Positions 6,901-29,405 of a stretch of 60,201 nt of DNA are shown here, one piece after another. Source of the DNA: Parcubacteria group bacterium M6-OD1-4 (GTDB taxonomy: Bacteria; Patescibacteriota; Patescibacteriia; Patescibacteriales; UBA12465); contig LSNS01000006.1 in assembly GCA_003056205.1 (NCBI GenBank), positions 1-60,201 on the forward strand, read 5' to 3'. Under the pieces are notes generated by a model that worked only from the letters and a program-made list of their open reading frames with translations, was not told the DNA's origin and did not search any database. The position numbers were made by a program, and so were the translations under genes. Numbering within the stretch: position 1 is the first letter of the stretch; each line of letters starts with the position of its first letter.

Positions 6901-8225
6901 CGAATCAAATGGTGCAAAATATAACCATAAGACTTATAAAAATTAAGGTTTAAATCTATGGTTATTACAAAAATAAGTATGACCTCAAAAAGAAAGTATT
7001 TAGTCCGTCTTAAGCCCAGATATCTCAAGGCAAACAAAAAAACTAAGTCGGAAATGTTAGCAGAGTTTTGTCGGAATACTACTTATAACAATAAGTATGC
7101 GATTAGAATTCTGAGAGCCGGACATGAATATAAAATGAAAATCATTAATCGCAAAGGTCATTATACCTATAGCAATGAAGATATCTTCTGGCTCAAAAAA
7201 ATTTGGGAAATTATGGACTATTCTTGCGGACAAAGATTATCCCCACAACTTGAGGAAGTAATTTCTAAATTAGTGCTCTTTAAAGAATTAGATATCCCGC
7301 AAGCGAGCCAAGAAAGATTAAAACATATTTCTTCAACAACTATTGATAATCATCTACAAAGATTTAAACATGAACTTCGTTTAAAAATTAATTCCACTAC
7401 CAGACCAGGCAGTCTACTCAAAAAACAAATTTCCATTAGAACAGTGAGTTGGAACGAAACTAGAATTGGCTATTGCGAATTAGACACTGTCGCTCATTGT
7501 GGCGATAGTGCAGCTGGTGAATTCATTTCCAGCCTTGATTTAACGGACATTTTAACCCAATGGACAGAAACAGAGGCTCTGCTGGGTAAAGCCCAAAAGC
7601 GGGTCATTGCCGGTCTAGAAAATATCAAAAATCGTTTGCCTTTCCCACTATTAGCTATTGATCCGGATAATGGTAGTGAGTTCATTAATTGGCAATTATT
7701 TGAATACTGTCTGACGAGAACAATTGAATTTACTCGTGGTTGACCATACCATAAAAATGATAATGCTCATATCGAACAAAAGAATTGGACTCAAGTCAGA
7801 AAAGTATTTGGCTATAGGCGTCGAGAAACGGAAAAAGAACTAAATTTAATGAATGATTTATATCGGAATGAAATTAGATTGTATAAGAATTTCTTTATGG
7901 CTAACGTAAAATTAGCGCAGAAAAAAAGAGTCGGAAAAAACAAGGAAAAAATTAAACGTATTTATGATAGGGCGCAAACTCCCTATCAGCGCGTATTGGC
8001 CTGTGATCAAGTTAATAAAGAAGTCAAACAGAAACTCAGAGAACAATATGTCACACTTAATCCCGCTGAACTGAGAAGGCAAATCAAGCTTAAACTAGAG
8101 AAATTAAACAATATTAATAAAATAATTATTAACAAAATCATAGATCTAAAACCTGAGACCAAAGTTACATTCTTAGACCATAGAACGAAGTAGCTTACGG
8201 TTACATTCTTAGACGATTTGACACG
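6901..8225 (+). mobile_element. Insertion sequence (rve/DDE transposase, ISNCY-like) with imperfect terminal inverted repeats
   Basis: Left end cgaatcaaatggtgcaaaatataacc vs reverse complement of right end cgtgtcaaatcgtctaagaatgtaacc; subterminal gttacattcttagac repeated at 8164 and 8200. Confidence 0.75.
6958..8193 (+). pseudogene. Transposase (integrase catalytic domain) interrupted by in-frame TGA at 7741-7743
   Basis: ELDTVAHCG, DPDNGSEF, EFTRG*PYHKNDNAHIEQKNW; the two track ORFs are in one frame; the stop falls at the conserved Arg of SRPY (CGA>TGA). Confidence 0.85.
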
Positions 8226-8298
8226 GTTGGGTAAGTTCGTTCATATATTGCTTAAATTTACAAAATTTTAAGTCCTTTATTTTTCAGCTTTTTTTAGG

Positions 8299-9072
8299 TT
8301 ATTTCAAACGCTGTTCAATATAGGCTTTAAATTGCAACACTCTGAGGTCGTCATTTTGTTCAATTAAAAAAGATTTTACATCTTTGGCCATTGCCGCCAT
8401 ATCAAGGTTAGTTATAAAAGCTAAAAGCTTTTTCCGCAGCTCCATTTTATTCTTAATCCTTAATTTAAAATCTAAGTATTGGTAATTAAAATCGCTTATC
8501 CCTAAAAGATAGACCAGATCATAAAAATCACGCCCTTTAGTCCGTTTGCGGCCGAATATGGCCGCTGCTTTCATAGAAGAAATAATATCCGGCGGAGTTA
8601 ACTTTATATTTCTAAAAATATCAAATTTTTGCAGTAAAAAATTGTTTGGTTTATAGTTAAAATTATGGGGCGCCGTATCTACTTGAATTAGAATTTTCTC
8701 GTTAGACAGGGCACTTAAATTATTGTCTTTAAGTAGTTCGGGGATTTTAATACTGCAGCGGAACGCCCCTTTGAAAACATTTTTTATTTCAACTTTATAG
8801 CCTTCTAGTCCCAACTCTTTTTTAATAATTTCCGAAAGTTTAGTAAATTCAATTTTGCTTAATCCGAAGTTATCAAAATCTAGATCTTCAGAAAAACGGC
8901 GGCTGCCGTAAGCGATTTTTATGGCTGTTCCTCCTAAAAACGATAGTTTATTACTGAGTTCGTTCTTAAAAATTATATCTAAAATTTTGTATTGCAGGTA
9001 TTCACGTAAAATATTTTTATCAAATCCGGCGAGTCTCGGATAATATTTTTTTATTTCTTCTAGACTTAGCAT
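8299..9072 (-). CDS. abiEii: AbiEii-family nucleotidyltransferase toxin (type IV TA / abortive infection)
   Basis: FLGGTAI, RFSEDLDF, KGRDFYD motifs. Confidence 0.9.
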   Translation of the reverse strand: MLSLEEIKKYYPRLAGFDKNILREYLQYKILDIIFKNELSNKLSFLGGTAIKIAYGSRRFSEDLDFDNFGLSKIEFTKLSEIIKKELGLEGYKVEIKNVFKGAFRCSIKIPELLKDNNLSALSNEKILIQVDTAPHNFNYKPNNFLLQKFDIFRNIKLTPPDIISSMKAAAIFGRKRTKGRDFYDLVYLLGISDFNYQYLDFKLRIKNKMELRKKLLAFITNLDMAAMAKDVKSFLIEQNDDLRVLQFKAYIEQRLK

Positions 9073-9755: not shown

Positions 9756-10057
9756 GTCCATGTTATAGTTGACACTATTAAAGTGTCTTATGAAAAAATA
9801 TAAAAGAAACTCCTGGGAAATTGATATTGGGCTAAAAATACCCTCAAAAAATGCTAATATAGACAGATTTAAAGAATTAATTAATAAATCTATCGATATT
9901 ATGCAAAATAAAGCAGAAATACCTTAGAAAACAGAATGAACGCCTAGCTAATTCTAGGAAGATAAAAAACAAGGATAAAATTGCCAAAATAATGGAACAA
10001 ATAGACTTAAAACTAGTCGGATCTTATAAATAAAAAGTGTCAATGATGTTCGTGGAC
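9756..10057 (+). mobile_element. Possible MITE/IS remnant with an interrupted ORF (9790-10033)
   Basis: Imperfect IRs gtccatgttatagttgacact and agtgtcaatgatgttcgtggac; internal frame broken by TAG at 9925. Confidence 0.3.
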
Positions 10058-16435: not shown

Positions 16436-16560
16436 AAGTAAATTTTATCATTTTTAAGGCTGATGAGCAATTTGTTGGATAGATGTGTTTTGTTAGAATT
16501 TTGAAGTAATTAATTAGCCGACAACCTCTTGCTTTTAGGCAGAGGTCTTTTTATCTTCAT

Positions 16561-16602
16561 AAAAAGAAAAAAGCAATAGAATTGAATATTATTCTATTGC
16601 TT
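16561..16602 (-). terminator. Intrinsic terminator directly after the tRNA-like RNA
   Basis: 12-bp stem aagcaatagaat/attctattgctt followed on the minus strand by TTTTCTTTTT. Confidence 0.75.
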
Positions 16603-16702
16603 GGTACCAAGGGAAGGAGTCGAACCTTCGCGGAATCATTAGTTTACCGCATACCGCATTGTGTTTTACATTGCGATCACCACAATGTTTTTTTTCCTTG
16701 GC
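16602..16702 (-). ncRNA. tRNA-like small RNA (acceptor stem, T-arm and encoded CCA; no canonical anticodon arm)
   Basis: GCCAAGG...GAAGG-TTCGACT-CCTTC-CCTTGGT-A-CCA; has its own promoter and terminator. Confidence 0.7.
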
Positions 16703-16720
16703 GTTTGATGAACTATAAGT

Positions 16721-16749
16721 ATTATAACATTTTATGTTTTATCTGTCAA
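16721..16749 (-). promoter_or_regulatory. Consensus sigma70 promoter for the tRNA-like RNA
   Basis: TTGACA (16749-16744)-N17-TATAAT (16726-16721) with TG extension. Confidence 0.8.
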
Positions 16750-17037
16750 TGGTAAGTAGTGAAATTTTAGATGATTAGTTTCTTCTAAGATTTCAATCGT
16801 CGCTTTTACCGACGGATTATATGATGGTTTTAGATAGAAGTTATTTGCATATTCTTTTTGTAATGGTGATAAAAATTCATCCCCCCAAGAAGGTGAGAAA
16901 GTATTTACCCCCAAAAAATCAATAATAATTTTTTCAGTATTATTTTTAGGAAGTCGCGAACGTATTGCCGCTAAAGCTTCTTTTCCTAGTTGGCGAGATA
17001 TTAGCAAATCACCAAATTTTTTTAATTCAATTAACAT
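16732..17037 (-). CDS. STAS-like (DUF4325-type) protein
   Basis: LISRQLG...IIIDFLGVNTFSPSWGDEF pattern; follows the HATPase gene. Confidence 0.75.
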   Translation of the reverse strand: MLIELKKFGDLLISRQLGKEALAAIRSRLPKNNTEKIIIDFLGVNTFSPSWGDEFLSPLQKEYANNFYLKPSYNPSVKATIEILEETNHLKFHYLPLTDKT

Positions 17038-17047
17038 ATTTTGCAGT

Positions 17048-17806
17048 TTAAAAAGAAATTAATGCTAAACAACCCCTAAATTTGGTCGTACTGGGTCGTA
17101 CCTCTAATTTATTAGTAGTTTCATCTAAAATTAAATAAGCACTCCCAGATTGGAAATATAATTTTAAAGCTATATCCTTTTTAATATCTATAATTACTTT
17201 TTTGACATATTTGAGTCCATTTCCTCTATTCTCTGGCGCTCGTCCCGAGAGTTTTTCTGTAAAGGAAACTAATAAGGCTTCTTGGTCATTGGTTAACGTG
17301 GATCGCACCCTCTGCAAAGTCGTTAAAATGCCCTGTCCCCGATCAGCCAAAGCTATTTGTCGTTTATATAAATTATAAGCAAAAAATATTCCGCGAATAT
17401 CTGGCCAAGACCCTAAATTATGATCAAAAGAATTATTGCCAATTTCTCCAACAACAGAAGTTATTAAAGAAAAATCTTTTTTTAATTCAGGAATTTCTAA
17501 CATCATTTTTTCTAAATATTGGAGTCTGGTTTGAAAAGTTGGACTATCTAAACAAAAAAATTCATTTTTTAATCCACGATTATTTGTTAGATTAGAAATA
17601 GATTTTGAAACCCATTCTTCTGCCAAAGAAAAAATATTATTTCCGATTAATTGAATATCAGAGAGTTTATAATAACGATATCCGTCATGATTGAAGCGAA
17701 TTGCCCGAAGTCGGCCAGATTTATCCCAACGTCTCAAGGTTTGCATTGAAATATTAAGTATTCTCGCTGCTTCGCTGATTTTTATTAAGCCCTCATTATC
17801 TATCAT
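17048..17806 (-). CDS. MerR-type HTH fused to a HATPase_c (anti-sigma-kinase-like) domain
   Basis: ISEAARILNISMQTLRRWD...GYRYY; EIGNNSFDH, ADRGQGI, RGNGL boxes. Confidence 0.8.
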   Translation of the reverse strand: MIDNEGLIKISEAARILNISMQTLRRWDKSGRLRAIRFNHDGYRYYKLSDIQLIGNNIFSLAEEWVSKSISNLTNNRGLKNEFFCLDSPTFQTRLQYLEKMMLEIPELKKDFSLITSVVGEIGNNSFDHNLGSWPDIRGIFFAYNLYKRQIALADRGQGILTTLQRVRSTLTNDQEALLVSFTEKLSGRAPENRGNGLKYVKKVIIDIKKDIALKLYFQSGSAYLILDETTNKLEVRPSTTKFRGCLALISF

Positions 17807-18057
17807 GCTAATTTATAAATAGTATTAAATTATACAAAATTATACATTTTTATGTCAATATATACATTATAATCCTCTAAATAAAAATGTCAATACTTGT
17901 AACGGTGCTTATTATTATAAAAACCATTGTTCAAAGTGTAAAACTTTTTGTCCTCACGTCCCAAAAGTATTTACAAAAATTATAAAAAGTGTTATTATGT
18001 TTTCTGAATAGAATATTATTAAAATAATAAAATCATTAGATTGATTAATATTTTTAT

Positions 18058-20685
18058 ATGTTAACAGAAGACAATATTTTTAAAATTAATCTTGACAATC
18101 ATGATGAGGATGATCTTTTGAAGAATAAATCAGAAACCAATATAAAACCTAATGAAGAAGGGGCAACAAAACATTCCGCAGAATGGTGGAAAAAGCAAGA
18201 TCAAGCATCTGAAGGGGCTGACAGTTTTTATAAATTAATCAAAGATAAAAATTTAAATACGATTTGGGATGAAAATTATAAACATAATCCTCTATCTTTT
18301 TTTGAGGATGAGAATTTTGAATATCTCAATCAACTTGAAGTTGGTGAACGTCTTAATTTATTGGCCATGTCTGCTACCTCGCTACTTATTACTCCCCAGT
18401 CAGCAGAAAAATATTTTGAAAGATTCCCTGATGATTTATTAGCAGTAGATAGCATTTTTTCATTTGTAAGGTTTGAGGATATTAATTACAGAAATTATCA
18501 TTTATTTTCTATATGTGCTTTGCAAATGGATCCTGGCGATTTAAGAGTTTCTAACAATGGTAGCTATCAGCAGCTTGAGGGGAAATTAGAACAATTTTAT
18601 AATATTGCCCTTCGTCGACGGGAAGCTCCTAAATTTTTATTAAGTAATTTTAATAATTTGGACATCAAAGATAATTTTGCCGAATTTGGAAAGGCCGCTT
18701 CAGGATTATTTGAAGTTTTAAATAAGGCTGATGATCAGAATACTAGACTAGATACATCTCCAATGTTTTCGAATGAATATCAAAAGTTATCAGAAGATAA
18801 AAAATCACTCTTTTTAAGAAAATGTTTAGCGCAACTTCAATATTCTTTATTATTTACAGAAACTTTTAATAGCCGTTTTACTGCCGAATCAACCGCTTAT
18901 TATGATGCTCACATCGAAGATCATTATAATGTAGCGCATTCCATGATTTTTAAAACATATCAACCTCGTTCATCCTACAATATTGATCAAAGTTATTTTA
19001 GACATGAAATGGATTGGACGGTTGAAACTGGTGGTGATGTTGAAGAGTATGCTGATCATAAAATGCTTCTTGCTGTTTTAGAAGAATTTCAAGACTTGAA
19101 AGCTGATCAAGATGAAAATACGGAATTGCTTGTTGAATTTTGGAATAAAAATCGTAATCCTATTTTTATTAATTCCGTTTCTCGGGCACTGTCTAAACAA
19201 AACGTTAACTTAGCGGCTTCGCGATTATTAGAAAATTTACAATCCGAAAAAGATAAGAAAGAGCCAATTAGTGCTATGCTATATCGCTTGGAGTTTGGTA
19301 AAGTTGGAATTTCAGAAGATGGAATCAAATATTTAGAGAAAATATATGATTTAGGTCAATATAATAAATCAGAGTTTTGTGCTAGTCGTTTAACAGCTAA
19401 TGGAGAAATAGGTATTTTTAATGAAGAGCTTGAATTAATTAAATATTTTCATCTTGGTCAACTTGATAGTCCGGAAAAAAGAATGAAAGCGGAAGTTTTA
19501 GATTTTACCTACGACACTCTTTTCATTGGGGATAAAAATGAAACCAAAGAAGAAAGACAAGAAAGAGAAATCTATCTTGAAGAATTCAAAAAAAATTATT
19601 ACCGCATTTCCGAAGAAGAAATATTCAAAAATACTGATACTAGACTTAATAATCTTTCTTTTAAGGAACAAGGCTGGTTTTTAATTTATTTTAATCAAGT
19701 TAGTCAGAAAGACAAAGAACAATTGCGCAATTTTATTGCTACTTATCGTGAAAATGGTGTGAAGAGTTTTTTATCTCTAGAGGCCAACCAAAAATTAGGA
19801 AATAAAATAGTAGAATTAGGGAATAAATTAGATCGAGATTCTGGACAAATTATTTTTCATAAAATTTCTGAAATTATCGATTTAGCGGAGAAGGAAAATC
19901 AAGAACTTGAACAGTTATTTTTAACAGATCAGATTGATATTGATTTTGATTGGAAAGATATTCGTTTATCCTTATTGAATAAAACACAAAATATTATTGT
20001 AGATTTTAATAAATCATTCAAGGGAAAAAATGAAACAAAACAGATCTCTAAGTTATTAAGTGATTTAGAAAAAAGTCAGGCGGACATGTTATTACTGACA
20101 CAAGTTTTAAAAGCTACTAAAAAAGAAAGAGAAAAGATTCCTCTCGAAATAATTAGGGACTTAACTCTAGAAAAAAAAGTGATTGATAATCACCATCGAA
20201 AAGTTTTAACTGTGACCGAGAAAAAACAACTAGTAAAAATTGCTGAAGAAAATTATCAAAATTTATTTTTACAGAAAAATAAAAATTATAATCCTGAAGC
20301 CTATCACCGAATTATTTCTAATTTTAAAAAAGAATTAGAAAATATTGATGGGCAAATGATATATATTTTAAAATATAAAGGTAACATTATTTGTTTTAGT
20401 AAATTCAAAAAGATTTCTGCCGAAGCGGTTGCTGGTGGATCTTTTAATGTTTCTCAAGATGTTCAAGGTTTGGCTCTTGGGGGAGCTTTTCTTAATAAAG
20501 TTTTAAGTGAAATTTCTAAATATTATGATGTTCATATTGTGAGTCGAAAAGATAATCTGGCCAACAATTACTATCAACGTAGTGGATTTATTATTACTGA
20601 AGAATATCGAGAGAAAGATGGAGTTGATTATTATCGAATGCTTAAACCCTCCGATTCGGCTCGGCTCTTAAAAAAGGCTAGTTAA
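18058..20685 (+). CDS. Large acidic hypothetical protein with C-terminal GNAT-like domain
   Basis: 875-aa ORF; SFNVSQDVQGLALGGAFL and ANNYYQRSGF resemble GNAT motifs A and B. Confidence 0.65.
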   Translation: MLTEDNIFKINLDNHDEDDLLKNKSETNIKPNEEGATKHSAEWWKKQDQASEGADSFYKLIKDKNLNTIWDENYKHNPLSFFEDENFEYLNQLEVGERLNLLAMSATSLLITPQSAEKYFERFPDDLLAVDSIFSFVRFEDINYRNYHLFSICALQMDPGDLRVSNNGSYQQLEGKLEQFYNIALRRREAPKFLLSNFNNLDIKDNFAEFGKAASGLFEVLNKADDQNTRLDTSPMFSNEYQKLSEDKKSLFLRKCLAQLQYSLLFTETFNSRFTAESTAYYDAHIEDHYNVAHSMIFKTYQPRSSYNIDQSYFRHEMDWTVETGGDVEEYADHKMLLAVLEEFQDLKADQDENTELLVEFWNKNRNPIFINSVSRALSKQNVNLAASRLLENLQSEKDKKEPISAMLYRLEFGKVGISEDGIKYLEKIYDLGQYNKSEFCASRLTANGEIGIFNEELELIKYFHLGQLDSPEKRMKAEVLDFTYDTLFIGDKNETKEERQEREIYLEEFKKNYYRISEEEIFKNTDTRLNNLSFKEQGWFLIYFNQVSQKDKEQLRNFIATYRENGVKSFLSLEANQKLGNKIVELGNKLDRDSGQIIFHKISEIIDLAEKENQELEQLFLTDQIDIDFDWKDIRLSLLNKTQNIIVDFNKSFKGKNETKQISKLLSDLEKSQADMLLLTQVLKATKKEREKIPLEIIRDLTLEKKVIDNHHRKVLTVTEKKQLVKIAEENYQNLFLQKNKNYNPEAYHRIISNFKKELENIDGQMIYILKYKGNIICFSKFKKISAEAVAGGSFNVSQDVQGLALGGAFLNKVLSEISKYYDVHIVSRKDNLANNYYQRSGFIITEEYREKDGVDYYRMLKPSDSARLLKKAS

Positions 20686-20702
20686 AGATTAATGCTGAGT
20701 TT

Positions 20703-21491
20703 TCAGGAAGCTGAGCTTGAAGTTTTTTTCTCTCCAGCCTCATTCCAGAGAGAATTAAAAATAAATTTATTTATTTCATAAATATTCTTATTTTCAATAA
20801 TAATTGAAACCAGGTGTTCTTTATTGATGACTTGGAAAGATACTTTATTATCATAAATTTGAATTGCAGACTTGAATTGCACTAAATGCTTATTAAGATA
20901 ACGAATGTTCGTTATTTTTTTGTAGTCTAAATTGCTATTAGGTTCGTGAAACGGATCGGCACCAATTCTGATAATTCTTTTTGGTATTCCAAGTTGTTCG
21001 CGTCGGTTTTTGTACCAGGAATTTATTTTTCTAAATTCTTCTTCTTTTTGTAAAGCGCTTTTGTCAAGTAATAGACAAATTTCTGTTTTACTAGTTAAAG
21101 TATCTTCTAAAACTCTCCTAAAACCATCTTGACCTTCATAGAATTTAACCCCAGGTTTATTATTAATTAAATTATAACTGGAGATTAAATCTGGTAAAGA
21201 AGCTGTGAATTCTCTTTTAGTCTTATTAAGTTCTTTCTCACGATATTCCAAAACTTTTTCAAGATTTGCGGGATGTTCGACAATAAACAAAGTTACACTT
21301 GACTTACTTTCTTTTTTTGAAATCAAGCCCAAATCAATCAATTCTTCCAGCCCCTTATAGGTCACGCCCCGGGGTCTTTTTGTTTTTCTAGCAATATCAC
21401 TAGCCTTTAAAGGACCATTTTGTAGTAGGCAATCAAATATCTCAGCCTGAACATTAGTTAAACCGAGTTTGAGAAGTATTTTTTTATCCAT
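20703..21491 (-). CDS. TrmB-family transcriptional regulator (HTH + PLD-like sensor domain)
   Basis: LGLTNVQAEIFDCLLQNG...RGVTYKGLEELIDLGL; KPGVKFYEG; IQIYDNKV. Confidence 0.85.
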   Translation of the reverse strand: MDKKILLKLGLTNVQAEIFDCLLQNGPLKASDIARKTKRPRGVTYKGLEELIDLGLISKKESKSSVTLFIVEHPANLEKVLEYREKELNKTKREFTASLPDLISSYNLINNKPGVKFYEGQDGFRRVLEDTLTSKTEICLLLDKSALQKEEEFRKINSWYKNRREQLGIPKRIIRIGADPFHEPNSNLDYKKITNIRYLNKHLVQFKSAIQIYDNKVSFQVINKEHLVSIIIENKNIYEINKFIFNSLWNEAGEKKTSSSAS

Positions 21492-21660
21492 ATTATTTAA
21501 TTTTAATGTTTTTTAATATCTTCAATTATTTTTTTTCTGCTTAATTCTTACAAAATATCTGGTATTCTCTCTGTCTATACCAGAGTATAAATTGTGGATA
21601 ACTTTACAAGACTTAGATTTTGTTGTGTTAGCCACTCAAGTAGTTCTTGTTTATATCACT

Positions 21661-21689
21661 ACTATAGCAAAATAAAATATGTTTGTCAA
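21661..21689 (-). promoter_or_regulatory. Promoter of the trmB-like gene
   Basis: TTGACA-N17-TATAGT on the minus strand; overlaps palindrome ttgtca-N10-tgacaa (21683-21704). Confidence 0.65.
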
Positions 21690-21785
21690 CTTTAATAATG
21701 ACAAAATTAATAAATAAATATACTTGTTTTATACAGTATTGTCAGATGTTTTATTAACAATTATCAATAAATGTCCTAATTAGTA

Positions 21786-21814
21786 TTGACAGATATGTCA
21801 AGCTATGATATACT
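21786..21814 (+). promoter_or_regulatory. Promoter of the RNA-rich operon with a palindromic operator over the -35 box
   Basis: TTGACA-N17-TATACT with TG extension; TTGACA-gata-TGTCAA palindrome at 21786-21801. Confidence 0.75.
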
Positions 21815-21820
21815 GTCAGT

Positions 21821-22390
21821 ATTAAAAGTGAGAAAAACGAAAGGATGATGATTAAATCGTTCTCCTAAATAGATTAAGGAATAATCTATAGTGTACGTAA
21901 ATAATTTAAAGTGATTATGACAGTTTCAGGAGATTAAGATGAATTAACATCTACTTCTTTCTTAAAAAATAAGAAAGGAGTTAGGGAGAGAGTTCATTTC
22001 CTGAGGCTAGCAAGCACTTATTTGTTTGCTTTCATCTTCAGTCTTTGACTCAAGTTGAAATAAACGTTTGGTCGAGCTGATCCGAAGATTACGTTGCAAA
22101 CCGTAATCTCAGGCGCAGGCGATCTTAGTATCTTGTAACCGTATTTCCGCAAGGAGAAAAGGTTCGGAGAAAAGCGACCCAACGTGACCGTCTCTTATGA
22201 GGAGATCGGCTGAGCCCCTAAACCTTGAACAAGTTTAAGACTCAGGAATTTCCTCAGAAAAGAAAAAAAGAGGGAAAGTTCTTTGTCAAAAAAAATATTA
22301 AAATTTTTTTATTCTTTGAAAGGCATTATTCAGAGTATCCTGTTAGCGCATTATTAATTAGATGGGCGATAGAATACTCCGGACAATGTT
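21821..22390 (+). ncRNA. Long structured leader or ncRNA of unknown class
   Basis: About 11 near-contiguous stems with G-U pairs favouring the + strand, e.g. 21922-21934/21996-22008 and 22064-22074/22175-22185. Confidence 0.65.
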
Positions 22391-22414
22391 GCGAGGAGAG
22401 AAAAAACTAAGTCG

Positions 22415-22810
22415 ATGAAAAGTGTAAAATTTTTTGCCAGCCTGGGAGTAGTCTCTGGGTATGGGCATAAAAATGTAACCGCTACCAGCGCGGTTAATAT
22501 AGCTGGAAAAGCTTGGCAGAAAGCCGCTGCCGAGGTAGCCACCAAGAACGGGGGCACCTATGTTGGTGCGGTGATTACTCCAGCGCGAGTAATTTATCAT
22601 ATTGACTGGGGTTGCCCGGTCGGCGGAGAAATTGCAGTCGCCATTACTGGCGAATGCAATCCAGAGTATACTAAATTGGCAGCATATAAGGCTGCCGTAT
22701 TGACAACATTGAAAAGGGCCGCGTTGGCTCTTGGACAAAAGACAACTCAGTTGACCTTCCAGGAGGTCGAATTTGAGTACTTAGATTTTCGTCCTAAAGG
22801 AAAAAAATAG
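22415..22810 (+). CDS. Hypothetical protein (131 aa, WGCPVGGE motif)
   Basis: ATG ORF, first gene after the leader; higher GC than the host genes. Confidence 0.75.
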   Translation: MKSVKFFASLGVVSGYGHKNVTATSAVNIAGKAWQKAAAEVATKNGGTYVGAVITPARVIYHIDWGCPVGGEIAVAITGECNPEYTKLAAYKAAVLTTLKRAALALGQKTTQLTFQEVEFEYLDFRPKGKK

Positions 22811-22905
22811 AGGCAACTATAAACCGTGTACCAAGGCTACGTGAATGTTTTGGAACTCAAAAGGTAGAGTTAAAATTACCTATATATTAGTTAAAATTTT
22901 CGAAA

Positions 22906-23229
22906 ATGGAAAATTTAATTAATATGACTCCCCACCCGATTAATATTATCAAGGAAGGTCAGCCAACCAAAACCATCCCTATTTCAGGGAAATTGATTCG
23001 GTTGAAAACCTCCACAATATTAACGGGGGTTGAGGTCAATGGTGTGCGTTTATCTAAAACTGTTTTTGGTGAGCCCGAAGGGCTCCCGAAAGAAGTTGAA
23101 GGAACTTACATTATTGTTTCTCAGCTCGTGAAGTCAGCTTTGCCGCAACGTTCGGACCTTCTGGTCCCTGCTGAAGTGGTGAGGGATAACCAGGGACACA
23201 TCTTAGGATGTCGTTCTTTGGGAATCTAG
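22906..23229 (+). CDS. Hypothetical protein (107 aa, NxTPH ... IVSQLV ... VRD.QG.ILGC)
   Basis: ATG ORF in the operon; motif pattern recalled from phage-like uncharacterised proteins, not verified. Confidence 0.75.
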   Translation: MENLINMTPHPINIIKEGQPTKTIPISGKLIRLKTSTILTGVEVNGVRLSKTVFGEPEGLPKEVEGTYIIVSQLVKSALPQRSDLLVPAEVVRDNQGHILGCRSLGI

Positions 23230-23380
23230 GTTGATTTACGGAGGAGCCTGAACAGGATTCGGGGTGTTAAACAAACACCTGGCAACAGAATAAATAGTTT
23301 CCCGAATAGTAGAAAAATGGGTTAATAAGTCACTACGAAGTTCAAACAAAATCTGGATAACTATTGTTCAAATAGTTATC

Positions 23381-23433
23381 CTCCCTCTCGAAATGTGTGT
23401 TTCGACTGATGAGTCCAAAAGGACGAAAGGGAG
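23381..23433 (+). ncRNA. Hammerhead ribozyme, type III; predicted cleavage after C23387 (CUC triplet)
   Basis: ctccc-UC / stem I tcgaaa-tgtgtg-tttcga / CTGATGA / stem II gtcc-aaaa-ggac / GAAA / gggag: full core and three perfect stems. Confidence 0.92.
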
Positions 23434-23628
23434 TTGTTCATTTAAAATTAAGATAAATTAAATCTTTCATTTTTCTATTTTAATTTAATAATTCAAATAT
23501 TTTAATTCTTATTTTTAGTATTTTCTCAAAAAAGATATTAGAAATGAGAATTAAAATAATTTGTTAACTTTAAAAAAGGAGACCTAATGTGAGATTGATG
23601 AAAATCAAGGTAAGCGTTAGGAAGAAAG

Positions 23629-24867
23629 ATGAAAAAGGTTATTGTTTGTGGTCCGCCCCACTCTGGCAAATCGGTGTTTTTGGCCAATATCATGGCTAAA
23701 ATACCGTGTGATCAATATATATTGATCTATGGGTGTCCCGATGGTGAGGGACATTGGTCAAATATTGCCAACCAAAATGTAGCCCAGGCAATTAGACAGA
23801 AAGGTGTTTTTGACGCCACTTTTCTAAATTTCATTACGAAGTCCATCCGAAATGCCGAGCAACGCTTGGTGTTAGTAGATGTTGGAGGACGTCGCTCTTC
23901 TGAGAATGAAATTATTTTTCGCGAGTGCGAAGGGTATATTATTCTTTCGTCTTCGCCAGAAGAAATTTCGGCTTGGCGACAATTCGGTGATGGGCTGGGA
24001 CTGCAATGTCTAGCTGAACTGGATTCGCGGCTAAGTACAGAGGAGTCTGTTCTTTATCCCAACCAAGGTGATGGAATCCTGAGGGGTTTGGTTGTCGGGT
24101 TAGAACGGGGGACCTTCGTAAACTCGGTTGTAATTGATGTTTTAGTCAAACGATTCAAAGCAATAATTACAGCTAATAGCCAGATGACGCTGGCTGAAAA
24201 AGAAGCGGATATTTCTGGGATTCAATTAGCTGACAAGATTGGCATTGAAGACCGGACCGACCCATTCTTAGGTTATCGCCCCTGGCATTTAATGCCAGCT
24301 TTGAAGGCGGTAAAACGTCTGTATTCTAAAAAGATAATTCGCATTTGGAACATTCGCTCTTTTTGGACGGCATCAGCGATGGTTATTGCTTTCCAAAAAT
24401 CACTTGTGGAATTGTTTGATGTTTCTAATGGTTACATCGCAATTCCGAGTTTGAAACCAAAGAAGTCTGGGTCAGAAATTGGAATTGACTGGAGAGTAAA
24501 TGAATTTGACGATTTTACCATCGTTAACTTCAGGATTAATGGTGATATATTTGATATATCTACCTTACGGAAAGTGTACCCACCGGCCGTTAATCAAGCA
24601 AAAGGGGTGATAATTTCAGGTAGAGGACCGATTGTTTTAGGGGCGACTATTGCTCGTGCCTACAGCAATGGCAAACATCCGTTTATTGCGATGTTTGCTG
24701 CGGCAGAATCGGGCCGTAAACAGCTTTCTTTAAATGGTCAAAAATGGGATGAAGTCTATCCTGTTTGTGGCCCATGTGTGGAAATTGCCGGCCAGAATAT
24801 CGGACGGCTAATTCCTGTGAATACAGAAAATCTTAAATTTGAGGTCAAGGAGGACCCTATAAAATGA
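23629..24867 (+). CDS. csx3: P-loop NTPase fused to Csx3 (Crn3 ring-nuclease-like) domain(s)
   Basis: GPPHSGKS, CPDGEG, LVDVGG; C-terminal PPAVNQAKGVIISGRGPIVL matches the Csx3 signature. Confidence 0.8.
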   Translation: MKKVIVCGPPHSGKSVFLANIMAKIPCDQYILIYGCPDGEGHWSNIANQNVAQAIRQKGVFDATFLNFITKSIRNAEQRLVLVDVGGRRSSENEIIFRECEGYIILSSSPEEISAWRQFGDGLGLQCLAELDSRLSTEESVLYPNQGDGILRGLVVGLERGTFVNSVVIDVLVKRFKAIITANSQMTLAEKEADISGIQLADKIGIEDRTDPFLGYRPWHLMPALKAVKRLYSKKIIRIWNIRSFWTASAMVIAFQKSLVELFDVSNGYIAIPSLKPKKSGSEIGIDWRVNEFDDFTIVNFRINGDIFDISTLRKVYPPAVNQAKGVIISGRGPIVLGATIARAYSNGKHPFIAMFAAAESGRKQLSLNGQKWDEVYPVCGPCVEIAGQNIGRLIPVNTENLKFEVKEDPIK

Positions 24868-25358
24868 AAGAATTAAATTGGAAGTTAGCTGATGGTACTC
24901 TGGTTATTGATCGGAAAAATAGCCATCTAGCTAGCCATTTAAAGACTTACCCTTTATTGAGTGAGGCCTTGCCATTGGCTTTAGCTCAAATTGCTCCCCT
25001 TCATCAGAAAAATTTTCATCTCCAAGAAGTGAAGATGGATAAGGTTGTTGGTGAATCTATTTGTGTCGCTACTAATAAGAACGATGAAATTGTTTACGCC
25101 AAACGACCAAATCGTGAGGGGTTAACGCGATTCGTTAAGAATCGTGTCGCTGAAGAAAGTAACAAAATATCCGTCATCCTTAAGAAAGGTGAGGGATGTT
25201 ATATCCTTTTGTCCGCTTTTGTCGGTGGACTGACTCCTCCCGAGCCCTGGGACGAGCATGCCACTCCGGAGAGTTTTACGTTCTGGAACGAACATGCCCT
25301 AATTTGGGGTTGCGAAGAAATTGTTCCCGGGACTGAAACCCGAGATTGCCCTTGGTAG
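24864..25358 (+). CDS. Hypothetical protein (164 aa)
   Basis: ATGA overlap with the upstream gene; AGGAGG at 24848-24853. Confidence 0.75.
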   Translation: MKELNWKLADGTLVIDRKNSHLASHLKTYPLLSEALPLALAQIAPLHQKNFHLQEVKMDKVVGESICVATNKNDEIVYAKRPNREGLTRFVKNRVAEESNKISVILKKGEGCYILLSAFVGGLTPPEPWDEHATPESFTFWNEHALIWGCEEIVPGTETRDCPW

Positions 25359-25559
25359 TCTAAATCTCAAAGTTTAAGCGAATGATTTGTTTATATCATT
25401 CGCTTTCTTTCCAAGCTCGTCATTCGTGGCGGTTTTTGAGAGGAATTGCTCTCATTGTTCTTTTTTAATCTAATATTAATTGGTTGTCATTTACCATTAG
25501 TTTTTTGGTTTTATTGGTTGCTTATTTAAGGCGCTCAATAAAACCAAAAAACTGTAAAA

Positions 25560-28500
25560 ATGAAAAAATTAAAAAAATTACCCATCGATGCCTTTAAAAA
25601 TGAAATTTTAGAGTGTATTGAAAAGAACCCGGTTTCAATAATTGTGGCCGAAACTGGTGCCGGTAAATCTACTCGTGTACCACAATTTCTTTTAGAATCC
25701 ACGGATTGGCAAATTGTCGTTACGCAACCACGTCGTGTGGCTGCTAAAGCTATAGCCAAGCGTGTTGCTGAAGAAATGAATTGTCCATTTGGAGACCTAG
25801 TTGGTTTTCGAACGGCAATTGAGCATCGGGATAGTTCTGAAACCAGGTGTCTTTTTGTCACTGATGGTTTACAGCTCGTTCGTGAGCTGGTTAAGACCAA
25901 AGCATCAATAAGCGGCGGAATTTGTCTTCTTATTGATGAGGTCCATGAGTGGAATCTCAATATTGAGACTCTTGTGGCCTGGGCAAAGAGACATCTTCTC
26001 TCTGGCACTGATATTAAAGTTGTTTTAATGTCAGCTACATTAGATTTTAAAGAATTATCAAAATTTTTTGATGATGCTCCCGTAATTCAAGTCCCAGGAC
26101 GCTGTTTTCCAGTACTAGGTTCGCCTACACATCCAAATGGCATTATTCAGAAAGGATCTTATGAGATGCTCACTGAAATCCAGAGACTAATCGCCGAAGG
26201 TGCGAATTCACTTGTTTTTTTACCTGGTAAAGGTGAAATAAAACAAATGGAAAGAGAGCTAAAGCAAAGCAATCCGAAGGCGGAAATTTTACCATTACAT
26301 GGCGATGTTGATTCGAATCAACAAGAATTAGTCTTCAAATCCTTTGCTCAACCGAAGGTGGTGTTGGCAACTAATATTGCCCAGACATCATTAACAATTC
26401 CGGATATCGATGCTGTTGTTGATTCGGGCTTAGAGCGCAGAGTTGAACTCATTAATGGCGTCGAGACCTTGTTGCTGGCAAATGTTTCTCAGGCCGATTG
26501 TCGCCAAAGAGCTGGACGGGCCGGGAGAGTTAAAGAAGGTCAATATGTTTTATGTAATAATAAAGCATACGATTCTTTTTCAACCTTTCCAATACCAGAA
26601 ATTCAGCGTTCTTTGTTGGATCAAATGGTATTACGTTTAGCTGGTGCTAATTTAAATGTTTTAGAGCTTTCCTTTTATCATCAACCAGAAAAGCAAATTC
26701 TAGTTGATGCTAAAAAACTGCTTTATGCAATTGAAGCTCTTGATCTAAACGGAGAAATAACAAAACTGGGGCGAAAAATTAATCGTTTTCCAGTGAATGT
26801 TATGTTTGCTCGCATGATGTTGGAAGCACTGGAGCGTAAATGTTTGGCGCCAATACTCAGTATTGTAGCTATTTTAGGAACTCGCTATGGTTCCATTCGC
26901 CGCAGACAACGGGATAACGACCCAGAAACCTACCAGTCTTGGGAAAAACTTATCGATTCTGATAAAGAATATCACTCTGATCTTCTATTAGAATATGATT
27001 TGTTCAAAATAGCTCGCTTCATGAAAAGGAGTGAATTAGCTAAGAAAGGTATTGATCCGAAAGGTTTTCGGACGGCAGTTGAAATTCGGGAGCGGATAAA
27101 AACTGCAATTCACCATCTTGGATATCAGAACCAAGACCATAGCCGGAACAAAACAAATGAAGAAGAAATTCTGAAATGTATTGCTTCTGGAATGTTGGTT
27201 CATTTATACCAGCATGCGGGCGGTAATGAATATGTAAATGGGGAAACGCGCACTTTAGCTCGTGAATCCATTATTCAAAATCTTCCTAGTAATCCAGAAT
27301 GGATTGTCGGGGAACCATTGAATATAGACATTGTTAACCGACGTGGTCGGGCACAAACCATTGCCTTAGTTAAGAGTTGTACAGTGGTTGATCCCCTGTG
27401 GTTTATCAAAATTGCCCCGCACTTAGTGGAGCAAAAAATTGAGAACTTACGTTATGATGGGGAATTAATGGGTATAGTTGAAGATCATTTCGTGCTTTTT
27501 AACGGTGTTGAAATTGCCCGGAAGAAGAAGTTGGCAGACTATCGCCTAGAAGTGCTTGATAAATTCAGTTCGGCGTTAGCTCATCATTATTTTCCAAGTG
27601 ATTCTACTTGGCAACAGATTAGCGATGCTAATGAAGCCAATTTAGCAAAATACCGTAAATTTCGGATAAGAAGTGGTGGAATAATTGAGAATTTAGATTC
27701 ATCATTTTTATCCAATCACTATCAAAACGTGCTTGAGAAAGCCGTAAAAGATAAGAAAATAAAAAACTTATCTTTGCCGGTGATTGAGGCAACATTAGGT
27801 GGATTATCTTCGCTTTATTTACCGCTTGATTCGTATCTTTCGGCAGAAGAGGAAAATCGCATCAAACGCGAAAACCCCGATACTGTTGAAATAGCTGGTC
27901 AAGAGTATCCTGTTACTTATGGTCAATCAAGTAATGAATTCTATGCCCAGCTTTCAGTTGATAAGAAATTTATTCAAGAAACTAATCTGGAGCGGATCAA
28001 TCTTCCCAATGGTCGTGAGCTTGTGATTGAGTGCGAAAATTATTCAGGAACTTTTTCTGAAATTCGTATTAAATTTCAGGAACAAATGATCAATAACTTC
28101 AAAGCTGAAATTTCTCAGTTTATTGTCATTCCGCAAGAAGAACCGTTTCAGCGGAATAATTGGACATGGCAACTCACTGAGTTCGGACAAACTCTACAAA
28201 AATATTTTAATCAAATTCAAGTTGAAATTATTGAGAATTTAAATTCTGATAATCAGACGGAATTAATTGAAATAGTTAAGAGAAAAACTGAAGAAAAGAA
28301 AAAGAATCTTCTTATTGGATATGAAAAAGCCAATATTTTAATTAAAAATGAAGAGGATGATTTGGAAAAAACTTTAGTTGAATTTAATATGGAGTTTGCT
28401 CAAGAGGAAGTTCACCAAATTCGTAATCAGTTTATAGAAGTAAAATCGTTTTTGCAAAAAGCGAAATTTACAGAAATAAATAATTACTGTCGTGAGATAG

Positions 28501-28904
28501 AAAAAAGGATTACAGAATTAAAGCCGATGGTAGCAAAGCGGAAAAAAGAACGGGAAGATGTAGTCAAAAAAAATAATATTCCCAATTATCTTTTATCTGC
28601 CTTCGGTGGAGACTTGAGCCGCACCACCCAATTTCTGGCTAATGTTTCCAAGATTCAGACTTGGAGATTGGATGAACATGAAATCACTTGCGGTCGTTCT
28701 CGGGCGAGCCAGAATATCAAAGAAGCCTGGACTGCGATGAGAGAGAAGTCTGATTTCTTTTGTGGGGCTGATCCAAATGATGTTAAGTATTATGTACACG
28801 AATATCATTTTGGAAATAGTCAAAACGAAGAAGATGAATCAGAAATCGATTCATCCAGTGACGCTATGTTTGAGGCTTTGCGTCGGGCTGGTCTAGTCGA
28901 ATAG
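25560..28904 (+). CDS. DEAH/RHA-family RNA helicase (HrpA/HrpB-like) with long C-terminal extension
   Basis: AETGAGKST, TQPRRVAA, DEVH, MSAT, ATNIAQTSLTI, QRAGRAGR; HA2-like region. Confidence 0.9.
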   Translation: MKKLKKLPIDAFKNEILECIEKNPVSIIVAETGAGKSTRVPQFLLESTDWQIVVTQPRRVAAKAIAKRVAEEMNCPFGDLVGFRTAIEHRDSSETRCLFVTDGLQLVRELVKTKASISGGICLLIDEVHEWNLNIETLVAWAKRHLLSGTDIKVVLMSATLDFKELSKFFDDAPVIQVPGRCFPVLGSPTHPNGIIQKGSYEMLTEIQRLIAEGANSLVFLPGKGEIKQMERELKQSNPKAEILPLHGDVDSNQQELVFKSFAQPKVVLATNIAQTSLTIPDIDAVVDSGLERRVELINGVETLLLANVSQADCRQRAGRAGRVKEGQYVLCNNKAYDSFSTFPIPEIQRSLLDQMVLRLAGANLNVLELSFYHQPEKQILVDAKKLLYAIEALDLNGEITKLGRKINRFPVNVMFARMMLEALERKCLAPILSIVAILGTRYGSIRRRQRDNDPETYQSWEKLIDSDKEYHSDLLLEYDLFKIARFMKRSELAKKGIDPKGFRTAVEIRERIKTAIHHLGYQNQDHSRNKTNEEEILKCIASGMLVHLYQHAGGNEYVNGETRTLARESIIQNLPSNPEWIVGEPLNIDIVNRRGRAQTIALVKSCTVVDPLWFIKIAPHLVEQKIENLRYDGELMGIVEDHFVLFNGVEIARKKKLADYRLEVLDKFSSALAHHYFPSDSTWQQISDANEANLAKYRKFRIRSGGIIENLDSSFLSNHYQNVLEKAVKDKKIKNLSLPVIEATLGGLSSLYLPLDSYLSAEEENRIKRENPDTVEIAGQEYPVTYGQSSNEFYAQLSVDKKFIQETNLERINLPNGRELVIECENYSGTFSEIRIKFQEQMINNFKAEISQFIVIPQEEPFQRNNWTWQLTEFGQTLQKYFNQIQVEIIENLNSDNQTELIEIVKRKTEEKKKNLLIGYEKANILIKNEEDDLEKTLVEFNMEFAQEEVHQIRNQFIEVKSFLQKAKFTEINNYCREIEKRITELKPMVAKRKKEREDVVKKNNIPNYLLSAFGGDLSRTTQFLANVSKIQTWRLDEHEITCGRSRASQNIKEAWTAMREKSDFFCGADPNDVKYYVHEYHFGNSQNEEDESEIDSSSDAMFEALRRAGLVE

Positions 28905-29059
28905 TTTTTTGTCTTCCCTCGACATAAAATTGGGCGCTTTAATCCCTAAGAGCGAAATTCAGATGGGAATAAACTTAAAATTGCGAACAGGCTCGTTTAA
29001 CCTGTTCGCTTCTTTCCCGAAGATATCATTGAAAATGGTGTTTTCAGCAGAGAAATAAT

Positions 29060-29200
29060 AAAATCCACTAGCAATTTGTTGGGTGCTAAAATAAACATTC
29101 ATATTTAAATTAAACTCTCTCCTTTAAATAAATGTTTATTTCTAATAATTTTGCATTTCGATGCAAAATAAGCCCAGACAAACTATTAGTGGATTTTTAT
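29060..29200 (+). ncRNA. Three-way-junction structure / terminator at the operon 3' end
   Basis: Closing stem aaaatccactag/ttagtggatttt encloses two hairpins, one attttgcat-TTCG-atgcaaaat. Confidence 0.5.
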
Positions 29201-29297
29201 TATAGTCGCTAAATCTAATATTTTATTAATAATAATTTATGGTAAACTTGTAATTTAATTTTAAAAAAATATTTTTATTAAAATTCTTAGTGATGTC

Positions 29298-29330
29298 AAA
29301 AAAAGACTTGGTAAATATCAAGTCTTTTTT
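29298..29330. terminator. Terminator downstream of tRNA-Ala (bidirectional)
   Basis: aaaaaaagacttg ... caagtctttttt. Confidence 0.75.
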
Positions 29331-29331
29331 G

Positions 29332-29405
29332 TGGACCCTAAGGGATTCGAACCCTTGACCCCCTGCTTGCAAAGCAGGTGCTCTGACCAGCTGAGCTAAG
29401 GGCCC
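29332..29405 (-). tRNA. tRNA-Ala(TGC)
   Basis: GGGCCCT/AGGGTCC acceptor with G3:U70; CCTGC-TTTGCAA-GCAGG. Confidence 0.95.

Follow-up and report, generated by a model that had tools for sequence, protein, structure and literature searches.

A TrmB-associated chromosomal platform with hammerhead motifs and homologues of signal-degrading enzymes in Patescibacteria

Signal-destroying anti-CRISPR enzymes have been described in CRISPR loci, phages, and plasmids. The described systems closest to the locus reported here are (i) lyases of S-adenosylmethionine-AMP (SAM-AMP), (ii) the ring nuclease Crn4b, (iii) Crn3/Csx3 and its ATPase fusion, (iv) the effector Cami1, (v) the type III hammerhead ribozyme, and (vi) the anti-defence clusters of phages and plasmids. 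The window, i.e., the stretch of 60,201 nucleotides analysed here, is one whole contig of the genome of Parcubacteria group bacterium M6-OD1-4 (G000; 785 kb, 96% complete). The locus in question is an operon of five open reading frames (ORF1 to ORF5, numbered in gene order) of 131, 107, 412, 164, and 1114 amino acids (aa), all on the + strand, next to a divergent TrmB-family regulator. Here, homologues of signal-destroying enzymes are stacked on episymbiont-type chromosomes for which the searches yielded no matching synthase. The best reading of the operon is that of a horizontally exchanged, self-processing counter-signalling unit. With a probability of about one half, it represents a horizontally exchanged, host-directed platform whose leading cargo removes the immune second messengers of other organisms.

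As the concept is generally understood, anti-defence clusters of phages and plasmids (AcrIII-1, Acb1) likewise place several signal-destroying enzymes behind a strong promoter where the targeted system itself is absent from the genome. The present locus differs from them: it is chromosomal in a cellular bacterium of episymbiont type, brings a regulator of its own, a long leader, and ribozyme junctions, and has no integrase or phage genes. Its parts belong to known families, while their arrangement and host range are without a description in the literature searched. In that literature, which was mostly non-subscription, nothing was found that joins Patescibacteria (candidate phyla radiation) to ring nucleases, cyclic oligoadenylate (cOA), or hammerheads; homologue lists in the supplements of PMC12830947, PMC12255297, and PMC12409355 could include Patescibacteria. 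The accessible sections of PMC13059738 contain nothing on anti-CRISPR. All parts named in a preliminary description of this DNA, made from the letters and a list of open reading frames, are present where it placed them, and the ORF list bears out their common + orientation within the operon.

A constant platform with interchangeable cargo

The locus is a constant expression platform with interchangeable cargo. The genomes compared form a genus set (69), an order set (316), and a class-wide draw (401, one class being sampled); L-numbers (e.g., L005, L074, L089) denote extracted locus stretches. Carriers, i.e., genomes with both TrmB and leader, make up 12 of the 69 genus genomes, with drafts 92–98% complete. 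All 12 share the layout of a large variable gene, convergent trmB, promoter, leader, and cargo. A TrmB orthologue (≥50% identity) occurs in exactly these 12 genomes, and a model of leader domain B finds one copy in each; the model was built from those 12, so that its informative result is the 57 misses. The hammerhead family RF00008 is matched in 10 of the 12 carriers and in 0 of the 57 other genus genomes, and a pattern search recovers hammerheads in the other two carriers. The parts thus form one co-inherited unit, as had been proposed, and co-occur in genomes other than the one in which they were first seen.

A fixed six-gene RNA-processing machine is not what the carriers show, their cargo being exchangeable, with an HrpA-like helicase gene in just 6 of the 12 (G018 having a partial match only). 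The cargo scan of the 11 relatives covered 65 of the 75 listed cargo ORFs; omitted were the helicase, MoxR/VWA, and flanking ORFs, one duplicate, and one G083 ORF containing Ns. At least one degrading enzyme homologue (lyase, Crn4, AcrIII-1, or NrN) is present in 10 of the 12 carriers. Counted by family and with G000 included, the lyase is found in seven, NrN-type DHH_CorA proteins in five (two of them fused to Crn4), stand-alone Crn4 in three, AcrIII-1 (PF08960) in two, and NTPase-Csx3 in four. The lyase profile matches 7 of the 316 order genomes, all carriers, and the five genus genomes with Crn4 (of 69) are likewise all carriers. The gene order is lyase-Crn4 in G000 and G013 and Crn4-lyase in G014. 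Among the metagenome stretches, L074 and L076 repeat the order lyase, Crn4, hammerhead, NTPase/Csx3, and L085 has Crn4, lyase, and NrN.

Beyond the genus, Crn4 occurs in six further families of the class-wide draw. It stands behind the layout of big gene, trmB, and promoter in G505, G435, and G460; G545, from another family, has a promoter followed by Crn4, lyase, and a fusion of NTPase-Csx3 with the ORF4 domain; and G617 and G440, which have Crn4, show no clear platform. PF08960 is found in 3 of the 401 genomes (once below the cut-off), each time a short distance behind a TTGACA promoter. Purifying selection acts on the cargo, with ratios of nonsynonymous to synonymous substitution rates (dN/dS) of 0.05–0.17 and dS often saturated.

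Several uncharacterised cargo genes were seen alongside these families. In an NrN-type phosphodiesterase (L033:9237-10358, L034:13-1071), a Crn4 domain without the catalytic Arg is fused at the C-terminus; this may be a single protein directed against two signal types. Recurrent platform genes encode radical-SAM, unknown, and membrane-anchored lyase-like proteins (L037:13788-15845, L078:2251-4265, L089:4494-5865), with a weak Mvol_0529 match in G074 only. An unannotated 143-aa gene lies directly upstream of an NrN-type gene (L030:4246-4677, L031:15544-15975, L085:7526-7957) and is a candidate partner or signal-degrading protein. The 113-aa "FSRH" protein (L089:3951-4292) has no PADLOC or Pfam match and was not counted; its likeness to Csx20/Csx16 is putative. 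The platform also serves as a guilt-by-association screen, in which the BECR-fold domain described below, the 143-aa gene beside NrN, and the lyase-like membrane protein are candidates for new proteins that degrade or bind messengers.

Cargo proteins and transcript structures

ORF1 (positions 22415–22810, + strand) is a SAM-AMP lyase homologue of the PADLOC Mvol_0529 family (PDB 9lqd/9gad, E 4e-17). Its residues 2–123 match the PII-like SAM-AMP lyase of Clostridium botulinum at the same E value. Eight of the 11 binding-site residues given in the accessible part of PMC12255297 are identical in ORF1 (Y48, W64, C66, E71, N81, Q108, T110, and Y122), and the other three are replaced (F84 by Tyr, S50 by G, and T112 by Q). 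The set Y49, W65, C67, E72, N82, Q108, T110, and Y122, which includes the catalytic Glu, is invariant in all seven lyase copies. The T-loop residues W64/C66 are missing from the phage SAM lyase, according to the same part of PMC12255297. ORF1 shares its sequence family, catalytic Glu and Gln, and T-loop W/C with the C. botulinum type III-B/CorA lyase and the phage AcrIIIB4 candidate covered there. Unlike them, it is chromosomal, lies beside ring nuclease homologues in a genome without RAMP genes and an operon without a CorA gene, and has the T112→Q and S50→G changes. In a 272-kb viral contig (L054), a stand-alone gene taken by eye to be Csx3-like and a homologue of the SAM-AMP lyase are separated by about 6.5 kb (1183–1479 and 7989–8372).

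ORF2 (22906–23229, + strand) is a homologue of the ring nuclease Crn4b (Unk01; PDB 9r7b, E 3.4e-13) and keeps the catalytic set as T8, H10, and R103, the equivalents of T13, H15, and R112. It resembles Crn4b/Unk01, as presented in the accessible text of PMC12830947 and in PDB 9r7b, in its short b-type length and these three residues. It differs in lying outside a CRISPR locus, phage, or recognised plasmid, in an Arg that varies among relatives, and in also occurring fused to NrN. The preliminary description had listed ORF1 and ORF2 as two small ORFs; they are present, and their identities, which go beyond that account, add support to its counter-defence reading.

ORF3 (23629–24867, + strand) joins a SIMIBI/MinD-like P-loop NTPase to two tandem Csx3-fold domains (PADLOC C3a67, E 8e-51), so that the NTPase-Csx3 fusion recognised earlier stands. 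Its structural model (predicted local distance difference test score, pLDDT, 94) matches Csx3 (Foldseek to 6yud, E 1.8e-5, TMt 0.82) and MinD/ParA/GPN proteins, and the two Csx3 domains are seen in the alignment. In Crn3, H57, H60, D69, and R71 are essential or absolutely conserved, as stated in the accessible part of PMC7371418. Domain 1 of ORF3 has I253/Q256/D264/S266 at the corresponding positions, and domain 2 has R/S/A/A. Because the full Crn3 catalytic set is missing, the degradation of cyclic tetra-adenylate (cA4) that had been ascribed to Csx3 is not supported for the Csx3 part of ORF3. Residues were aligned for 60 of the 120 listed homologues; domain 1 has the full Crn3 set in 11 of these 60, and domain 2 lacks the first His and the Asp in at least 59 each. 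The second Csx3 domain keeps the cA4-contact motif SGRGPI. The Csx3 fold and this motif are shared with Crn3/Csx3 and the Csx3-ATPase fusion C3a67 (PMC7371418, in its accessible part; PADLOC), whereas the tandem arrangement, the lost His/His/Arg, the SIMIBI-like rather than AAA+ NTPase, and the BECR-fold partner are different here. A cyanobacterial Crn3-ATPase fusion has the reverse domain order, and the initial account of Csx3 was that of a deadenylase (both from the accessible text of PMC8284326).

ORF4 (24864–25358, + strand) overlaps the ORF3 stop codon and has a putative BECR/RelE-like (DUF3228-like) fold. Listed as an unknown ORF in the preliminary description, it is the split-off C-terminal domain of the NTPase-Csx3 protein, being fused to an ORF3-type C-terminus in 48 of the 120 listed homologues and in G071. 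By sequence, ORF4 matches no PDB or Pfam family, and Atlas recognition (2188) is below the trust level. Its model (pLDDT 95) gives a middling match to CdiA-CT (5e3e, Z 8.1, root-mean-square deviation (rmsd) 2.2, 82 residues aligned), followed by DUF3228 (2pd0, Z 7.6, rmsd 3.4, 136 aligned) and RelE (Z 5–6), with a best Foldseek E of 3e-3. Like the CARF-RelE effector Cami1 (PDB 8phb), the ORF3/ORF4 pair joins a signal-binding domain to a putative RelE/BECR-type domain; it differs in having Csx3 in place of CARF, an extra NTPase, and a nuclease part that matches at merely Z 4.0. ORF5 (25560–28904, + strand) is the HrpA/HrpB-like DEAH helicase recognised earlier (TIGR01967, E 9e-92, below the cut-off) and represents optional late cargo.

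A type III hammerhead ribozyme motif lies between ORF2 and ORF3 at about 23380–23434 (+ strand), with a predicted cut after C23387 (CUC), a full core, and stems I, II, and III of 9, 4, and 5 pairs. Its score against RF00008 (40.6 bits, E 3.2e-6) is under the gathering score of 48.5, which is reached in 0 of the 69 genus genomes; as a motif, the hammerhead of the preliminary description is borne out. Segment folding places a hairpin with a GTTCAA loop directly against it (23355–23381, + strand). Among 36 distinct hammerheads in the loci scanned, all but one have the CUGANGA...GAAA core together with three stems and an NUH site; a hairpin with a GTTCAA-like loop comes before 35 of them. Stem I varies across copies yet stays paired (covaries), and all hammerheads in the genus loci lie on the operon sense strand. 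These copies share the core, three stems, NUH site, and covarying stem I with RF00008, and differ from it in the sub-gathering score, the use as a repeated intergenic junction with a fixed upstream hairpin, and the variant CCGAUGA in 7 of the 36. A C10 pattern match is not a hammerhead. Ribozyme-punctuated arrays are already known; no paper on ribozyme-punctuated bacterial operons was found in the mostly non-subscription literature searched. The locus would offer a natural case of ribozyme-insulated cassettes.

The leader of about 590 nt noted earlier (21821–22414, 594 nt) is strongly structured, with a minimum free energy of −171.9, a z-score of −6.2, and 0 of 100 shuffles as low. Its conserved core of domains A and B (21922–22290, + strand) ends in a T-rich motif that we take to be boxA-like, a putative likeness. 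The leader of G000 lacks a 5′ module that is present in the longer leaders of relatives. Two-sided changes occur at 29 of 63 predicted pairs of the leader alignment; domain B shows 15 compensatory cells, compared with 5.7 under shuffling (0 of 500 shuffles), a count that relatedness inflates. No Rfam family matches 21821–22414 up to E 5, which leaves an uncatalogued covarying leader RNA of about 370 nt. A T-box, a group I/II intron, and RNase P were dropped by eye, as their motifs are absent. The leader pattern occurs in 17 metagenome stretches (at least four identical to genomes already in the set) and in 0 viral contigs.

Other structured segments on the + strand are a long hairpin in the 5′ untranslated region (UTR) before the first gene (22291–22414, z −4.4), a second long hairpin, AT-rich, within the 5′ UTR of the NTPase gene (23495–23561; 30-nt arms, 83% complementary; segment z −7.9), and a spacer at 25359–25559 (z −8.7) with a terminator-like stem (25417–25432) and an 18-bp perfect hairpin (25499–25553). 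The 3′ structured element pointed out earlier (28905–29100, z −3.2) contains a junction-type hairpin (28983–29009) and a pyrimidine run without a hammerhead; G013 and G014 conserve it at 77% over 171 nt and 79% over 190 nt, respectively. The earlier statement that most spacers are rich in hairpins holds in part: 6 of 11 segments reach z ≤ −3, while J1 (+0.2) and J2a (+0.1) are at chance, and the same threshold is passed on the best strand by 13 of 60 control intergenic regions. In three genomes, the NTPase-Csx3 start codon is immediately preceded by a small conserved hairpin, possibly a translational operator (23575–23631; L005, about 8305–8358; L006, about 9965–10022). G000 and G013 have a sequence motif behind crn4 in common (23245–23295; L005, about 8100–8155), which folds no better than chance.

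TrmB (20703–21491, − strand; PF01978, E 1.8e-11) consists of a helix-turn-helix (HTH) half and an exchangeable C-terminal half, a putative sensor. It is divergent from a strong sigma70-type promoter (21786–21814, + strand; TTGACA-17-TATACT, 11/12 consensus matches), as first described, and has a promoter-like site of its own (21661–21689, − strand; TTGACA-17-TATAGT, 11/12 consensus). The operon promoter is present in all 12 carriers. The palindrome TTGACA-N4-TGTCAA (6-4-6) over the −35 box (21786–21801), previously called an operator, is real but kept in merely six carriers (G000, G013, G014, G018, G020, and G086), so that it is a candidate operator. Identity between TrmB proteins is decoupled across the two halves, at 90% (HTH) versus 26% (C-terminal) for G013/G086 and 93% versus 33% for G014/G083. 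The C-terminal half (20703–21158 compared with the carriers) falls into few types that do not track the HTH half, which suggests swapped sensor domains.

Source of the signals and competing explanations

RAMP genes were found in 0 of the 12 carriers and 0 of the five other Crn4 genomes tested, an absence that drafts 92–100% complete leave unproven. They occur in one of the 69 genus genomes, the non-carrier G061; there they lie on a small contig (L043-L046, G061:C105) with a GC content of about 0.47, possibly a binning contamination. G000, at 96% completeness, has no Cas1 and no repeat array in addition to lacking RAMP genes, in agreement with the CRISPR-less context proposed earlier. mCpol and SMODS were found in none of five genomes tested for each, and neither was found in G000. 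Since no synthase for the signals was found in the genome, they most likely come from an attached host cell. For one archaeal pair, host CRISPR spacers against the episymbiont are reported in the accessible text of PMC12133352, citing Esser et al. 2023. The stacked degrading enzymes are also unlike a CRISPR locus, because more than one ring nuclease is reported for only about 4% of the CRISPR loci that contain any (PMC12409355, accessible part).

Under the host-directed reading, TrmB would gate the operon from its place opposite the near-consensus promoter, and its swappable C-terminal half would set the trigger. By the logic of rrn leaders, the structured leader and boxA-like motifs may carry polymerase through internal terminator-like stems. 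The sense-strand hammerheads, judging from their intact motif, would cut the transcript between cassettes; upstream pieces would end in a hairpin and a 2′,3′-cyclic phosphate and downstream pieces would start with 5′-OH, so that each cassette may become a separate, probably stabilised mRNA. From homology and catalytic residues, the lyase is predicted to split SAM-AMP and Crn4 to open the rings of cyclic tri-adenylate (cA3) and cA4. Residue loss suggests that the NTPase-Csx3-Csx3 and BECR pair binds rather than cuts signals. The host of the attached epibiont would be the source of SAM-AMP and cOA, and their removal may blunt its dormancy or suicide.

Several observations weigh against a host-directed function. 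Neither G072 nor G083 has any degrading enzyme among the ORFs scanned, the same holds for both leader matches outside the family (G329 and G403; 2 of 150), and much of the cargo is unrelated (MoxR/VWA, glycosyltransferase, radical SAM). The catalytic Arg of Crn4 is Lys or Gln in all six other stand-alone copies examined, and the lyase has the substitutions T112→Q and S50→G. In E. coli, CorA immunity depends on SAM-AMP breakdown and is not opposed by it (PMC12255297, accessible part), and Crn4 can trigger the type II Panoptes defence, so such enzymes can backfire (PMC13577387, accessible part). How cytoplasmic epibiont enzymes would reach host signals is a further puzzle for the presumed target.

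A more far-reaching version of the same reading is tentative and somewhat doubtful. It takes the leader- and ribozyme-punctuated cassette array with its swappable sensor as a dedicated, regulated counter-immunity organ of cellular parasites that silences host alarm signalling during attachment and has repeatedly captured four unrelated signal-destroying folds (SAM-AMP lyase, NrN, Crn4, and AcrIII-1) together with a cOA-binding NTPase-RNase. In this version, a cell and not a virus would be turning anti-CRISPR on its host, and new proteins that degrade or bind signals would be expected among the uncharacterised cargo. If a host-directed function is true, host and epibiont exchange small messengers, a point of relevance to the intimacy of their contact, and host abortive defence acts on cellular parasites.

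Unlikely, with a real chance of being right, is the view of the operon as a mobile element's early anti-defence region, whose enzymes shield the element on entering CRISPR-bearing bacteria while the Patescibacterium is a mere carrier. Its distribution would fit. In a quick rpoB tree of 65 of the 69 genomes (G035 and G061 had no match and G081 and G091 only fragments), the carriers are dispersed, with 12 changes for 12 carriers against a shuffled mean of 11.2. Vertical inheritance in one clade is rejected by this tree, in which unassembled islands of drafts could inflate the patchiness. An approximately unbiased (AU) test of the TrmB tree against rpoB, with G403 left out, rejects G000+G074 (p 0.0002), a result confounded by the C-terminal domain swaps. 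The site between polA and tRNA-Ala is empty in the sister genome G090 (97 bp, compared with 13 kb in G000), there are two insertion sites (four carriers at tRNA-Ala and seven upstream of ftsK; a contig end in G013), and G008 has a recombinase-like element at the same tRNA. The GC content at third codon positions (GC3) of the four short cargo genes is 0.38–0.44, above the genome mean of 0.24 and 99th percentile of 0.37. Phage- or plasmid-borne Crn4, lyase, and AcrIII-1 are published, and one viral contig has Csx3-like and lyase genes. On the other hand, neither an integrase nor an att duplication nor phage genes are seen in the G000 insertion (16436–29330); the GC content of trmB and the big gene resembles that of the genome; and the leader pattern is found in metagenome stretches and in no viral contig. 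All genome platforms examined belong to one class, the sole class searched, and tblastn of the lyase and NTPase-Csx3 against annotated phages gave no match. Exchange of the platform probably proceeds by transformation and recombination between the repeated junctions.

That the operon is the Patescibacterium's own sensing or defence module, its NTPase-Csx3-Csx3/BECR pair being a cOA-switched RNase resembling Cami1 that eavesdrops on host alarms and leads to dormancy or detachment and is reset by lyase and Crn4, is rather unlikely. A signal-binding fold without catalytic residues but with its cA4-contact motif, joined to an RNase-type fold, would suit such a role, as would weak structural matches to SAVED domains and to the RelE part of Cami1; yet the pair is present in just 4 of the 12 carriers, six have degrading enzymes without it, the cargo contains no recognisable SAM-AMP effector, and the BECR match is middling, a shared fold showing no function. 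We consider it improbable that the cargo serves metabolism or clean-up, i.e., the salvage of host-derived adenylates or SAM derivatives or the trimming of damaged RNA, with a merely historical link to immunity. Patescibacteria generally lack nucleotide synthesis, the platform also carries radical-SAM, DHH, and HD hydrolase genes, and catalytic residues drift in several copies, all of which would agree with salvage. Slow poly(A) cutting by Crn4a (PMC12830947, accessible part) and the first account of Csx3 point the same way. Against it stand the characterised phage SAM-AMP lyase, which does not cleave SAM according to the accessible part of PMC12255297, and the repeated gathering of four unrelated folds whose shared known trait is the destruction of type III signals.

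Insertion borders and neighbouring genes

The whole insertion lies between polA and tRNA-Ala(TGC) (29332–29405, − strand), the latter being its right border and an insertion hot spot, and holds a MerR/DUF4325 pair, a large gene with a GNAT tail, trmB, and the operon. At the left border, a duplication of the tRNA end was looked for and none was found. A tRNA-like remnant of about 100 nt lies there (about 16601–16702, − strand) with an acceptor stem, T-arm, and ACCA end and no Rfam match at the gathering score. In G008, the same tRNA-Ala site is occupied by an unrelated element and a serine-recombinase-like gene, named by eye (L156:4818-6413). The gene pair inside the insertion (16732–17806, − strand) encodes a MerR-HTH/ATPase-like protein and a DUF4325 (STAS-like) protein and is also found upstream of the platform in G018.

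The large gene (18058–20685, + strand), convergent with trmB, encodes an 875-aa protein with a C-terminal GNAT domain (PF13673, E 1.3e-5). A large variable gene fills this slot in all 12 genus carriers. The slot genes encode proteins of 700–1400 aa whose variable enzymatic tails (GNAT, or sub-cut-off matches to cyclodipeptide synthase) recall polymorphic effectors; besides that of the window, examples are L005:241-4428, L006:3182-6829, L076:4570-8049, L081:2614-5190, and L074:12143-14356.

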